Below, in pieces: positions 44,300 through 46,825 of a DNA stretch of 64,000 nt. Positions within the stretch are counted from its first letter, which is position 1, and the number at the start of each line of letters is the position of its first letter. Location of the stretch: NCBI GenBank assembly GCA_040905185.1, contig JBBDRZ010000006.1, positions 8,039-72,038 on the forward strand, in the 5' to 3' direction. Made by a program: the position numbers and the translations under genes. Below the pieces are notes generated by a model. The model saw only the letters and a program-made list of their open reading frames with translations, was not told the origin of the DNA and did not search any database. The stretch is from Chloroflexota bacterium (GTDB lineage Bacteria; Chloroflexota; Limnocylindria; QHBO01).

Positions 44300-44540
44300 T
44301 GGCGGGAGGGGTACTTCGGTCCTAGGACCCTTCACCAGTACCGATGGGGACCATTGGTGCTTGGGCGCACCATTAACTGCGAGAGCGTCTGCACTAGACC
44401 CCACCGGACTATTCGACGAGCTGTCAGAAAGTACTAGGCAAGCCAGGACCTAGCCTGTATCTTTCGGCTCCGAATACCCCAGGGGGGCCGGTCAGCGGAC
44501 GCTGCCGGAACCAAGGGGGCAACCGAAAAGGAGACCGGCA
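44300..44540 (+). promoter_or_regulatory. conserved 5' leader (copy 1) shared with the paralogous downstream gene; candidate cis-regulatory RNA ending in AAAAGGAG RBS
   Basis: Blocks shared with 45395..45623: GTAC(C/T)GATGGGG, GGTGCT.G.GCGCACCA.TAAC.GCG, GTACTAGGCAA, CCAAGGGGGCCGG.CAGCGGA.GC.GCCGGAACCA, then RBS and TTGAC.GTCCA..CGCAGACACCCGCCCGTC. Confidence 0.5.
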
Positions 44541-45248
44541 TTGACAGTCCATACGCAGACACCCGCCCGTCATGCGACACGACTGGCACTCATCCTGGCC
44601 GCGGCTATGGCGCTCATCTTCGCCATGGCCCTCAGTACCCGCCCCGTGTTCGCGGGCGACAACACGGCATTACTCCAAGAGTCGCAGCAGGGAACCGACT
44701 CTTCCAAGGACGCGAGCGACTTCCCCTGCCCCGAGGGTGACGAACCGGAGCCCGGTGAGGTCCTGTGGCACTTCGTCCTGAACGGCGTCGACCCTGGAAT
44801 CGAGTCGGCACTGACCATCCACGCCCAGTTCGACGAGGATGGCGACGTCCACGACGACAGCAGCTGGACTGCCGGGGGCTCGAACCACCAGTTCTTCGTC
44901 ATCACCAGTGGCGACGACATCCTGCTCGACGCCTGGGTCGTCCTGCCTGAGGGCACGGAATACAACGTCCTCGTCCTGAGCCACATCTGCCATGGCGAAG
45001 AGGTCGAGGAGACTCCGACCCCGACGCCGACCCCGACGCCGACCCCGACCCCGACGCCGACGCCGACGCCGACGCCCGAGGGCACCCAGGCTGGTGGGAC
45101 CGGAACTCCGGCAGCATCGCTCCCGAACACGGCTCTCAGCCTGTCGGGAAGCGGCTCGTTGGCCACCATCTTCTTCGGTGCGGTCCTGATCGCCTCGCTC
45201 GGCGCGCTGGCCTACGCCAACGTGACCGCGGTGCGACGCCGCCGCTAG
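44541..45248 (+). CDS. cell-wall-anchored surface protein, sortase substrate (LPNTA motif), TTG start
   Basis: Signal peptide, a unique acidic domain, a (TP)n linker, then LPNTA, a hydrophobic TM helix and an RRRR tail (classical sorting signal). Confidence 0.65.
   Translation: MTVHTQTPARHATRLALILAAAMALIFAMALSTRPVFAGDNTALLQESQQGTDSSKDASDFPCPEGDEPEPGEVLWHFVLNGVDPGIESALTIHAQFDEDGDVHDDSSWTAGGSNHQFFVITSGDDILLDAWVVLPEGTEYNVLVLSHICHGEEVEETPTPTPTPTPTPTPTPTPTPTPEGTQAGGTGTPAASLPNTALSLSGSGSLATIFFGAVLIASLGALAYANVTAVRRRR
45019..45080 (+). repeat. (CCGACN)n hexanucleotide repeat encoding a TPTPTPTPTPTPTPTPTP linker
   Basis: About ten tandem CCGACC/CCGACG units are visible. Confidence 0.7.
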
Positions 45249-45255
45249 CCCGTCG

Positions 45256-45284
45256 TCAGGCCCCCGGACAACCCGGGGGCCTGA
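45256..45284. terminator. stem-loop CAGGCCCCCGG-ACAA-CCCGGGGGCCTG
   Basis: Perfect 11-bp GC stem immediately after the stop codon. There is no U-tract, as is common in high-GC Gram-positives. Confidence 0.6.
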
Positions 45285-45394
45285 TCGGTTCCTCGAGTTC
45301 GCCTTTCCTCGAGTCGCCGATTCATCCAGCCCCCCTGGCAGGGACGGGGTACGGGTCAAACCGTACCCCGTTCTCTGTTGTGGCCTATAGCCGG

Positions 45395-45623
45395 GCACAC
45401 CTGCCACTCAGGTAGTACTGATGGGGGCGACTGGTGCTCGCGCGCACCACTAACAGCGGGCTGCCCGGACTGGTCCCCACCGCAGCCCACCGGACCTCCC
45501 GGCGGATCGGAAAAAGGTACTAGGCAACCCCCGTACCCGCGTGTACTGTTCAACCCCGAACGCCCAAGGGGGCCGGCCAGCGGATGCCGCCGGAACCAGG
45601 GAAAATCAGAAGGAGATCCGGCA
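45395..45623 (+). promoter_or_regulatory. conserved 5' leader (copy 2) upstream of the second surface-protein gene; RBS AGGAG 8 nt before TTG
   Basis: See copy 1. The sequence blocks are conserved in the same order. Confidence 0.5.
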
Positions 45624-46757
45624 TTGACCGTCCAAGCGCAGACACCCGCCCGTCGCGCGACCCGGCTGACCCTGGTGATCGCCGCGAGCGCCATCCTCGT
45701 ATTGATCGTGGCCGGCGCAGTCGCCGTCGTCGCGCCGATCTTGACCGCGGCCACGGCCACCGTCACCCTCGAGGACGGAGTCGAGGGCTGCATGGGCGTC
45801 CGAACGACGCCCGGCAGCGAGAACACCACGAAGGAACTGGTTGGCGGCACGCTCGAGCCGGGCGGCACAGCCCTGTTCCGGTTCACGTTCCCCGCAGTGG
45901 AGAACGGAAACCCCGGCCAGGAAGAGTGGAGGATCACCGACTGCGTCTTCCTAAATAACGAGCCCTTCCAGAAGTACGACGTCACGGCATTGGAGAACGA
46001 CGAAAGCCCGGTGGTGATCGAATTCGTGCTCACCATCCCGGCCGACACGCCCGTGGGCGCCGAGTACTGCAACTACGCGAAAACGACGCAGACCCCCAGC
46101 GACGAGCAGGGAAGCAACCGGAAAGCCGGTCCCGCGTGCTTCATCGTCGGTGGCGCGCTTCGGATCGAGAAGAATGACGCGAGCGGCGCTCCACTGGCCG
46201 GCGCGACGTTCACCGTCGCTTGCGACTGGCCCAATGTCTCCGAGGAGACCTTCCTGCCGGACACCATCCTGAGCGCCCCAACCAACGGCACGATCACCCC
46301 GCCGGGCGGCGTCTCGACGGTAACCATCGATTCAACCGATGATGGATCGTTCACCAGGACCGTCGTGACCGGCAACCTTGGCGTCATCACCGTGAACGGC
46401 CCAGTCGACACGGAGTGCACCTTCACCGAGATTGCGGCACCTGCTGGATACATCGCCCCCACGCCACCGAACAACACGGTGACGCTGACCATCGACGATG
46501 CCGGCCAGCAGACGCATGCGTTCGTGAACGTGCTGCCGTCCACTCCGACGCCGACGCCGACCCTCACGCCGACCCCCACGCCTGAGGGCACCCAGGCCGG
46601 TGGGACGGGAACCCCAGCGCCATCGTTGCCGAGCACGGGCATGAATCTGCCGGTTATCGGTGGCACGTTGGCGGCCATTCTCTTCGGCGCAATCCTGATC
46701 GCCTCCTTGGGCGCGCTGGCCTACGTGAACGTCGTCGCGGTGCGGCGCCGCCGCTGA
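45624..46757 (+). CDS. cell-wall-anchored surface protein with CnaB/SpaA-type (prealbumin-like) domain, LPSTG sortase motif, TTG start
   Basis: N-terminus LTVQAQTPARRATRL is paralogous to the upstream gene. GALRIEKNDASGAPLAGATFTV...FTEIAAPAGY resembles a CnaB/SpaA isopeptide-type domain. TPTPTPTLTPTPTP linker. LPSTG, a TM helix and an RRRR tail. Confidence 0.7.
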   Translation: MTVQAQTPARRATRLTLVIAASAILVLIVAGAVAVVAPILTAATATVTLEDGVEGCMGVRTTPGSENTTKELVGGTLEPGGTALFRFTFPAVENGNPGQEEWRITDCVFLNNEPFQKYDVTALENDESPVVIEFVLTIPADTPVGAEYCNYAKTTQTPSDEQGSNRKAGPACFIVGGALRIEKNDASGAPLAGATFTVACDWPNVSEETFLPDTILSAPTNGTITPPGGVSTVTIDSTDDGSFTRTVVTGNLGVITVNGPVDTECTFTEIAAPAGYIAPTPPNNTVTLTIDDAGQQTHAFVNVLPSTPTPTPTLTPTPTPEGTQAGGTGTPAPSLPSTGMNLPVIGGTLAAILFGAILIASLGALAYVNVVAVRRRR

Positions 46758-46774
46758 CCCAGGCGAACAGCAAT

Positions 46775-46800
46775 CAGGCCCCCGGGAAACCGGGGGCCTG
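46775..46800. terminator. stem-loop CAGGCCCCCGG-GAAA-CCGGGGGCCTG (same stem as 45256); bidirectional terminator between convergent genes
   Basis: Perfect GC stem. Lies between the surface-protein gene (+) and kbl (-). Confidence 0.6.
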
Positions 46801-46825
46801 ATTCGTTACTGGTGCCTGTCGCGTG

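Follow-up and report, generated by a model that had tools for sequence, protein, structure and literature searches.

Two neighboring genes in a 64,000-nucleotide stretch of DNA from an uncultured soil Chloroflexota bacterium (contig JBBDRZ010000006.1 of GenBank assembly GCA_040905185.1; this whole stretch is the window, and positions are counted within it) raise the question of why genes with unrelated central parts share their non-coding surroundings. A first-pass annotation had proposed that the upstream part was a cis-regulatory RNA common to both genes. We found about 100 more copies of this upstream region, each before a homologous gene and all in one syntenic locus of Candidatus Limnocylindria. 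With moderate confidence, we favor a reading in which the genes are co-regulated, autonomously transcribed paralogues, each with a regulator site, a sigma-70-like promoter, a 5' stem-loop, and mRNA-stabilizing 3' hairpins. The two genes, which together with their flanking sequence we call cassettes, are as follows.

44541-45248, plus strand: gene 1, TTG start, 235 aa.
45624-46757, plus strand: gene 2, TTG start, 377 aa.

The gene calls confirmed two adjacent TTG-initiated genes with distinct passengers: the passengers are unrelated, and the similarity between the proteins is confined to their two ends, namely the N-terminal 27 aa (59%) and the C-terminal ~47 aa (72%). The start of gene 2 is confirmed because its product is identical to NCBI protein MEX0888841.1, which comes from a Chloroflexota metagenome-assembled genome (MAG) and is named "SpaA isopeptide-forming pilin-related protein". 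Both proteins have an N-terminal signal-like segment, a Thr/Pro linker, a hydrophobic transmembrane helix (TM), and an RRRR tail, and the pentapeptide near the C-terminus is LPNTA in gene 1 and LPSTG in gene 2. In gene 1, the signal peptide is followed by a ~110-aa beta-sandwich passenger, the TP linker, and the tail (...SLPNTA..TM..RRRR); in gene 2, by an N-terminal domain, a SpaA domain, the TP linker, and the tail (...SLPSTG..TM..RRRR). The CnaB/SpaA-like domain previously proposed for the second passenger was confirmed as prealbumin-like SpaA (Pfam PF17802, E = 5.5e-7, residues 178-296); the YPK pilin motif was not seen when the gene 2 translation was read by eye, no formal search having been run. 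A Pfam scan found no family match for gene 1, the core of which was confidently modeled as a beta-sandwich (mean predicted local distance difference test score of at least 93 per 10-residue block, residues ~41-150), with a helix predicted by AlphaFold at residues 206-234. A fold search of this passenger against the PDB returned no match at E ≤ 1e-3, the weak likenesses being to C1q/CBM6/CBM35-like beta-sandwiches only. Apart from the signal peptide, linker, and tail, the two genes share only the ~220-nt upstream region (leader) and a 3' hairpin.

The ordered blocks described in both leaders were borne out: mean column identity is 76%, and the blocks occur exactly twice in the window versus 0 expected by chance. 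A profile built from the two window leaders and searched with nhmmer gave 132 matches and uncovered over 100 copies, all in the orientation of the gene, and a covariance model of the 5' untranslated region (UTR), R1, gave 100 matches in 358,610 bases of related loci. Each R1 match ends at a cassette start codon, and the window contains only the two known copies. Neither model found a copy outside cassettes in the 358,610 bases of loci or in the window; hence the blocks are not a general context of promoter and ribosome binding site (RBS). The search for further copies was thus fruitful within the one syntenic locus and yielded none beyond it. Gene 1 has ~216 homologues; few carry an organism label, these being mostly Candidatus Limnocylindria MAGs, and most others are metagenome proteins. 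The order of the locus is argS, an HExxH membrane protein (DUF8575), an MBL-fold hydrolase, the cassettes, and convergent kbl-tdh, and the number of cassettes differs between genomes, from 1 to at least 4. Scanning metagenome contigs with protein guidance contributed 63 further loci. An exact-pattern scan of GTDB genomes, in which each species was represented by a single genome, returned 11 stretches, with no more than one on any contig, 1.4-Mb contigs included; all came from Limnocylindria/Chloroflexota bins except for one labeled Gemmatimonadales. In other genomes, these blocks stand before ~100 homologous genes, although the encoded proteins have only 32-50% identity; the non-coding conservation is therefore under selection and not the remnant of a recent duplication.

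Which parts of the leader act as DNA and which as RNA? The upstream elements are listed below, with distances counted from the predicted transcription start.

44355-44372, plus strand: palindrome TGGTGC-N6-GCACCA of gene 1, operator-like, centered at about -107.
45432-45449, plus strand: palindrome TGGTGC-N6-GCACCA of gene 2.
44392-44409, plus strand: C-rich block CACTAGACCCCACCGGAC of gene 1 at about -65, from alignments and the information profile.
45478-45495, plus strand: C-rich block CACCGCAGCCCACCGGAC of gene 2, from the leader alignment.
44431-44463, plus strand: predicted promoter of gene 1, with invariant GTAC, -35 TAGGCA (44435-44440), a 17-nt spacer, and -10 TATCTT (44458-44463).
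45517-45549, plus strand: predicted promoter of gene 2, with GTAC, -35 TAGGCA (45521-45526), a 17-nt spacer, and -10 TACTGT (45544-45549).

The most conserved block of the leader is GTACTAGGCA, which ends in TAGGCA, TAGTCA, TATGCA, or TTGGCA; as a -35-like hexamer, TAGGCA occurs in 62 leaders and TAGTCA in 16. The pattern TAnnnT follows this hexamer by 17-18 nt in at least 90 of the 94 unique leaders, against a background of 0.13% per position, and the interior of this -10 element is variable (TATCTT, TATTCT, TACGGT, TAGGGT). Such a combination is the signature of a sigma-70-like -35/-10 pair and hence of a predicted promoter. In internal cassettes, the last hairpin and U-rich tail of the preceding gene end only ~25 nt before the palindrome, so that no room is left for a conserved promoter further upstream. 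A candidate RNA helix, GUACU...AGUAC, spanning the -35 hexamer and spacer was rejected as a conserved structure, its left arm being invariant and its right arm absent from the window's clade.

Across the family, the palindrome takes the form GKTGC-N6-GCAMC, with a constant 6-nt spacer and half-sites that are invariant at four of their five positions. In 85 of 88 leaders, 70-72 nt separate its center from the downstream -35 hexamer, although the sequence between them varies. The variable pair, in the middle of the 5-bp stem, is GC in 51 copies, TA in 19, TC in 16, and GA in 12, so that 28% are unable to pair. Because the geometry is fixed and the half-sites are sequence-specific, we read the palindrome as a DNA site, and a dimeric DNA-binding protein appears to fit it better than an RNA hairpin. 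We also considered the leader as coding sequence, as the frame of gene 2 is open upstream to a TTG at 45378; this was ruled out because of 1- and 2-nt gaps between the leaders and an in-frame stop before gene 1. From its sequence features, the ~200-nt "leader" is therefore better read as mostly DNA signals, with a likely RNA leader of only ~55-80 nt. The proposed shared cis-regulatory RNA accordingly survives in part: the conservation is selected and one hairpin covaries, whereas most of the region is better taken as DNA signals and features of a switch are lacking.

If transcription starts ~7 nt past the -10 element (the predicted start), the 5' UTR is 54-79 nt long (median: 74) and contains, in order, box1 CCCCAGGGGGG, a hairpin, box2 (A)CCAGGGG, 8-20 variable nt, the Shine-Dalgarno sequence (SD) AAAGGAG, and a TTG or GTG start. 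In the window, these parts are located as follows.

44470-44540, plus strand: predicted 5' UTR of gene 1, ~71 nt.
44477-44487, plus strand: box1 CCCCAGGGGGG of gene 1.
44488-44508, plus strand: covarying hairpin of gene 1.
44511-44519, plus strand: box2 CCAAGGGGG of gene 1.
44526-44534, plus strand: SD AAAAGGAGA of gene 1, with GGAG at 44530-44533.
45556-45623, plus strand: predicted 5' UTR of gene 2.
45563-45572, plus strand: box1 CCCAAGGGGG of gene 2.
45573-45593, plus strand: 5' UTR hairpin of gene 2.
45596-45601, plus strand: box2 CCAGGG of gene 2.
45610-45616, plus strand: SD AAGGAGA of gene 2.

The hairpin truly covaries and is a well-supported new RNA hairpin motif. Folded one by one, its 57 distinct sequences had a mean z of -2.7 relative to shuffles, with 48 of them below -1.5. 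In the model-fitted alignment, both-sided changes occupied 59 cells versus 24.8 in shuffles (none of 500 reached this value), and 76.6% of cells could pair, as against 27-49% when the 3' partner was slid. This alignment leans towards structure, and the per-sequence folds are independent of it. Per-sequence folding and the covariance model replaced RNAalifold on a MAFFT alignment from promoter to start, which misaligned the variable hairpin and returned only a trivial CCC/GGG helix; an all-against-all scan of column covariation was dominated by clade differences and thus unusable. The compensatory changes in this hairpin show that the similarity of the leaders is more than a promoter-sized alignment. 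Additionally, box1 and box2 are complementary through CCCC and GGGG, respectively: ~95% of copies allow this pairing, and the minimum-energy folds of the two window UTRs include it.

The hairpin could belong to a sensing RNA, that is, a riboswitch, thermosensor, or attenuator whose response to ligand or temperature would set surface-protein expression, as had been suggested. A covarying helix between strictly conserved boxes is what such an RNA might contain, and invariance of nucleotides with little or no pairing typically marks contacts with a ligand or protein; moreover, alternative pairings of the 5' arm of the hairpin with GAGACC or GACCGGC after the SD can be drawn by eye (groups A and B), and the SD core is paired at a probability of ~0.55 in ensemble folds. 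However, there is a single covarying helix with neither a junction nor a pseudoknot, no T-run or U-tract follows it, and the full ~220-nt window leaders fold differently from each other (z of -3.6 and +0.9 in single-sequence folds), while the upstream half behaves like DNA signals. The SD lies outside the stem-loop, ~21 nt downstream of the CCGG hairpin, which therefore does not stand directly 5' of the RBS as once described. A thermometer of the ROSE or fourU type is likewise not indicated, given that the hairpin (44488-44508) excludes the GGAG at 44530-44533. Rfam 15 gave 0 matches at the gathering score in the window and only chance-level ones at E ≤ 10 in 44200-46900 and in locus L003 (1800-4900). 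We thus regard a sensing function as unlikely. One sub-threshold Rfam match, to Guanidine-II (mini-ykkC) at 44240-44277 on the minus strand (19.6 bits versus a gathering score of 32, E = 0.6), falls inside the last part of the MBL-hydrolase gene, antisense to it, and is in all likelihood a chance match.

The 3' side of gene 1 is structured as well, and its elements are listed here with the hairpin behind gene 2.

45255-45285, plus strand: t1, a 13-bp GC-rich hairpin after gene 1 (~-29 kcal/mol, z of -5.0), without a U-tract.
45285-45320, plus strand: hp3, a variable hairpin between t1 and the C-box (z of -3.8); other loci have a hairpin there.
45326-45345, plus strand: C-box CCAGCCCCCCTGGCAGGGAC, a 20-nt nearly invariant element of the 3' UTR.
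45339-45383, plus strand: t2, a long hairpin CAGGGACGGGGTACGGG-loop-CCGTACCCCGTTCTCTG with a U-rich tail, the probable terminator of gene 1.
46773-46802, no strand assigned: t1', a 13-bp hairpin (~-29 kcal/mol, z of -6) between convergent gene 2 and kbl, possibly a bidirectional terminator.
46826-48037, minus strand: kbl.

The near-identical hairpins behind the two genes had been called terminators. Their 13-bp stems are indeed nearly identical, but t1 and t1' lack a T-run and were not called by a terminator scan. The second hairpin of gene 1 (45339-45377) is more terminator-like than t1: its stem is long and followed by a GUUCUCUGUUGUG tail, part of which is able to pair into the stem. The CCCCCGG/CCGGGGG core of t1 is preserved throughout the family while its outer pairs change with compensation, and the inner stem of t2 varies with compensation between clades (CGGG/CCG, GAGG/CCTC, GCGG/CCGT), a UUCG loop being common. 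The C-box is identical in 84 of the 87 cassette 3' UTRs (loci L001-L078, from many metagenomes), a conservation far above that of coding sequence. It was found only in cassette loci, and an exact scan of viral contigs for the C-box with the start of t2 gave 0 matches. Last cassettes, such as gene 2 of the window, often have only t1 or only t2. We also observed that t1 and t2 often carry UUCG loops and are unusually stable, "designed-looking" RNA hairpins, and that in clades B-D a small CGGC-GNRA-GCCG hairpin, absent in the window, stands directly past the stop codon (e.g., L003:3713-3727). In other clades, a third CCAGGGG(A) occurs in each cassette between t1 and the variable 3' UTR hairpin (e.g., L008:1095-1110), which hints at a sequence-specific binding factor.

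The invariance of the C-box raises the possibility of an RNA-RNA circuit, in which the C-rich loop of the 3' UTR (CCAG-CCCCC-CUGG plus terminator) pairs with the G-boxes of the 5' UTR (CCAGGGGGG or CCAGGGG), either in cis on its own mRNA or in the form of a small RNA derived from the 3' end, and thereby couples or orders the expression of the paralogues. C-box GCCCCCCUGG is a perfect 10-nt complement of box1 CCAGGGGGG[C/U], it remained identical in the 84 of 87 copies while the adjoining stem varied with compensation, and RNAalifold places its CCCCC in the loop of a 4-bp hairpin. Precedents are the UCCCC motif in the 3' UTR of icaR of Staphylococcus aureus, which pairs with the 5' UTR of the same gene (PMC3868564), and the C-rich loops of Rsa RNAs (PMC2790875). 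Like icaR, the cassettes have a long structured 3' UTR whose C-rich motif is complementary to a G-rich segment of the 5' UTR; unlike icaR, where the target is the SD, the complement here is box1, ~45 nt upstream of the SD. On the other hand, box1 and the C-box are both invariant and hence without covariation, runs of G and C are common in GC-rich hairpins (t1 also contains CCCCCGG/CCGGGGG), and whole-UTR duplex energies between 5' and 3' UTRs were no better than those of shuffles (RNAduplex, mean z of -0.8). Furthermore, the last cassette, including gene 2 of the window, often lacks the C-box, and the C-box would fall outside the mRNA if t1 terminates transcription. We consider such a circuit improbable, although, if functional, the G-box/C-box complementarity would be a bacterial 5'-3' UTR circuit outside Firmicutes. 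Only slightly less doubtful is a broader form of post-transcriptional control, in which the 5' G-box/hairpin/G-box unit interacts with the 3' C-loop hairpin and terminator, directly or via a protein that binds CCAGGGG/CCCUGG, and so sets which paralogue is made, with the protein tail as a new, non-sortase sorting system.

Returning to co-regulated autonomous transcription, the data show that the elements are conserved, that their order and spacing are kept, and that the hairpins covary; from this arrangement, we infer the transcription start, the binding of a regulator, and a stabilizing role of the hairpins. Each gene would be a self-contained, co-regulated transcription unit in an old tandem paralogue family of Candidatus Limnocylindria, the products of which are surface proteins, secreted and anchored by the C-terminus. 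The palindrome (~-107) and the C-rich block (~-65) would both serve a transcription factor, probably, and transcription would start from the sigma-70-like promoter (invariant GTAC, -35 TAGGCA, 17-18 nt, -10 TAnnnT). The first ~45 nt of the 5' UTR would then fold into one long imperfect stem-loop, in which paired box1 and box2 enclose the apical hairpin, whose sequence would be free to vary within the limits of pairing. With the strong SD (AAAGGAG) and the TTG or GTG start outside the stem, the RBS would stay accessible. The 3' UTR would contribute 2-4 highly stable hairpins, in which UUCG or GNRA loops are frequent, the last being a long hairpin with a U-rich tail. Together, the 5' stem-loop and 3' hairpins would stabilize an abundant mRNA, as in S-layer genes, and the repeated CCAGGGG boxes and the invariant C-box would be recognition sites of a shared regulator.

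A similar 5' stabilizer is that of ompA. In Lactobacillus, the gene of the abundant S-layer protein SlpA has a strong promoter, and a stable stem-loop in its 5' UTR stabilizes the transcript and exposes the RBS (PMC10221546). Like slpA, the cassettes have a surface-protein gene with a short 5' UTR, a stem-loop close to where this UTR begins, and a free RBS: the stem-loop lies ~7 nt past the predicted start, and the SD is outside it. They differ from slpA in that the hairpin is flanked by invariant CCCCAGGGGGG and CCAGGGG and is repeated before every paralogue, and the stabilizing role and protein abundance would be extended to the cassettes by analogy.

Several points weigh against this reading. 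The -35/-10 pair scores only 8/12 relative to the Escherichia coli consensus, because of which a generic promoter scan gave no call, and transcript-like contig ends at the predicted start, including those among Logan contigs, gave no signal. First cassettes may receive read-through from the upstream MBL-hydrolase gene, which would place the whole region in RNA. A degree of symmetric co-variation in the palindrome (GC with TA above independence) means that it may still form a short hairpin, in RNA or in DNA. As box1 and box2 are invariant, their pairing lacks covariation support; moreover, the strict invariance of box1, box2, and the C-box exceeds the needs of a passive stabilizer. Finally, we did not identify the gene of the regulator.

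The 5' and 3' modules might instead serve mainly as homology arms by which passengers are swapped and multiplied, generating surface variation and not regulation. This would account for unrelated passengers between near-identical flanks, for cassette numbers from 1 to at least 4 between genomes, and for third-position GC that is lower in cassette genes (0.79-0.81) than in neighboring genes (0.88-0.92). In addition, the leader of gene 2 in the window is canonical, whereas that of the second gene in its closest relatives has diverged. Nevertheless, the blocks are conserved between genomes, beyond the reach of conversion, and recombination alone does not explain TAnnnT, the fixed spacings, and the compensatory stems; leader subtypes also keep their array order in many loci, which points to positional orthology. 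As the principal role of the modules, recombination is therefore quite unlikely, although the sensing-RNA, RNA-RNA, and recombination explanations are not mutually exclusive. The diverged leaders give partial profile matches (L001:3720-4040, L006:1170-1460, L022:4780-5070), and the canonical leader in the window (45285-45623) could have arisen in this lineage by replacement of the leader or by gene conversion.

Tandem genes with a conserved 5' non-coding region and signal peptide but divergent mature parts are also known from the vlp and vsp surface lipoproteins of Mycoplasma. The cassettes share this layout of tandem genes, conserved 5' region and signal peptide, and divergent passengers. Unlike vlp/vsp, they lack both a homopolymer tract within the promoter spacer and a single shared promoter, and a recombinase was not seen; each cassette has its own promoter- and terminator-like signals, and the positions of paralogues are conserved between genomes. 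The cassettes carry a class-wide, previously uncatalogued set of expression signals built from known kinds of parts. Candidatus Limnocylindria is an abundant uncultured Chloroflexota class whose gene regulation and envelope building are almost uncharted, and ~100 aligned examples of a probable native promoter, regulator site, and UTR structures offer a starting point for promoter models. The locus can also be used to define a new Rfam-style motif and to find the regulator.

How the products are held at the cell surface depends on the reading of their C-termini. Those of the two window proteins look like LPXTG sortase substrates, with [LIV]P[NDS]T[AG], a hydrophobic helix, and an Arg cluster as the tail of the window's clade, and with SpaA in gene 2; after the pentapeptide, the hydrophobic segment and positive tail read ...LATIFFGAVLIASLGALAYANVTAVRRRR. 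Unlike in LPXTG substrates, the pentapeptide is not conserved across the cassette family and no sorting model matches. At the position of LPNTA, homologues carry SVPDTA, SLLNTA, STPNGA, SAPDGA, STSNTA, SQADSS, or SMPDGA, and the consensus of 117 tails is S-x-[PSALTGQ..]-[ND]-[TGS]-[AS], in which P and T are not conserved. Conservation is highest at G-[TE]-G-T-P of the linker unit, at [ND]-[TGS]-[AS], and at the membrane helix SLGALAYANV, including its basic end; this helix is better conserved than the pentapeptide. In some homologues (e.g., P0007, P0018, P0073), the linker unit TPEGSQxGGTGTP is repeated 1-3 times; therefore, GTGTP belongs to a repeated spacer, probably glycosylated, and is not a unique sorting motif.

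Anchor models (Pfam Gram_pos_anchor and the NCBIfam LPXTG anchor) gave no match to the whole proteins at E ≤ 0.1, and LPXTG and other C-terminal sorting models gave none to the tails alone even at E ≤ 10. Below threshold, the product of gene 2 matched an LPXTG-anchored pilin model over the C-terminal part of that model (E = 1.5e-4, 20.7 bits versus a cut-off of 95). The TLxTC sortase signature was absent from coding-like open reading frames (ORFs) of the window and from 79 related loci, in agreement with the first-pass annotation, which had seen no sortase gene in the window. Its suggestion of two sortase classes is unsupported: the tails are 72% identical and form one family, differing in A/G and N/S. 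Since the relatives of gene 2 carry LPSTA or IPNTA, LPSTG is a local A-to-G variant. A sortase may still anchor the proteins in the window's clade, because LPNTA is a known class D sortase motif, found in substrates of Bacillus anthracis SrtC (PMC3208642). A paper search found none on both Limnocylindria and sortase among the results listed. That an LPXTG look-alike in one genome dissolved on comparison with homologues calls for caution, and the cassette tail may mark a different anchoring route.

Two further observations concern other genes of the window. A 422-aa membrane protein (42164-43432, minus strand) carries a metalloprotease-like HEYTH (HExxH) motif; it had no match in Pfam, its relatives are DUF8575 proteins, and it is syntenic with the cassette array in loci L001 and L002. 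It could be a candidate processing enzyme for the cassette tails. At a distance of 16 kb from the cassettes, an ORF resembling an extracytoplasmic function (ECF)-type sigma factor (28437-29027) is accompanied by a possible anti-sigma partner downstream (27232-29027 together, minus strand).

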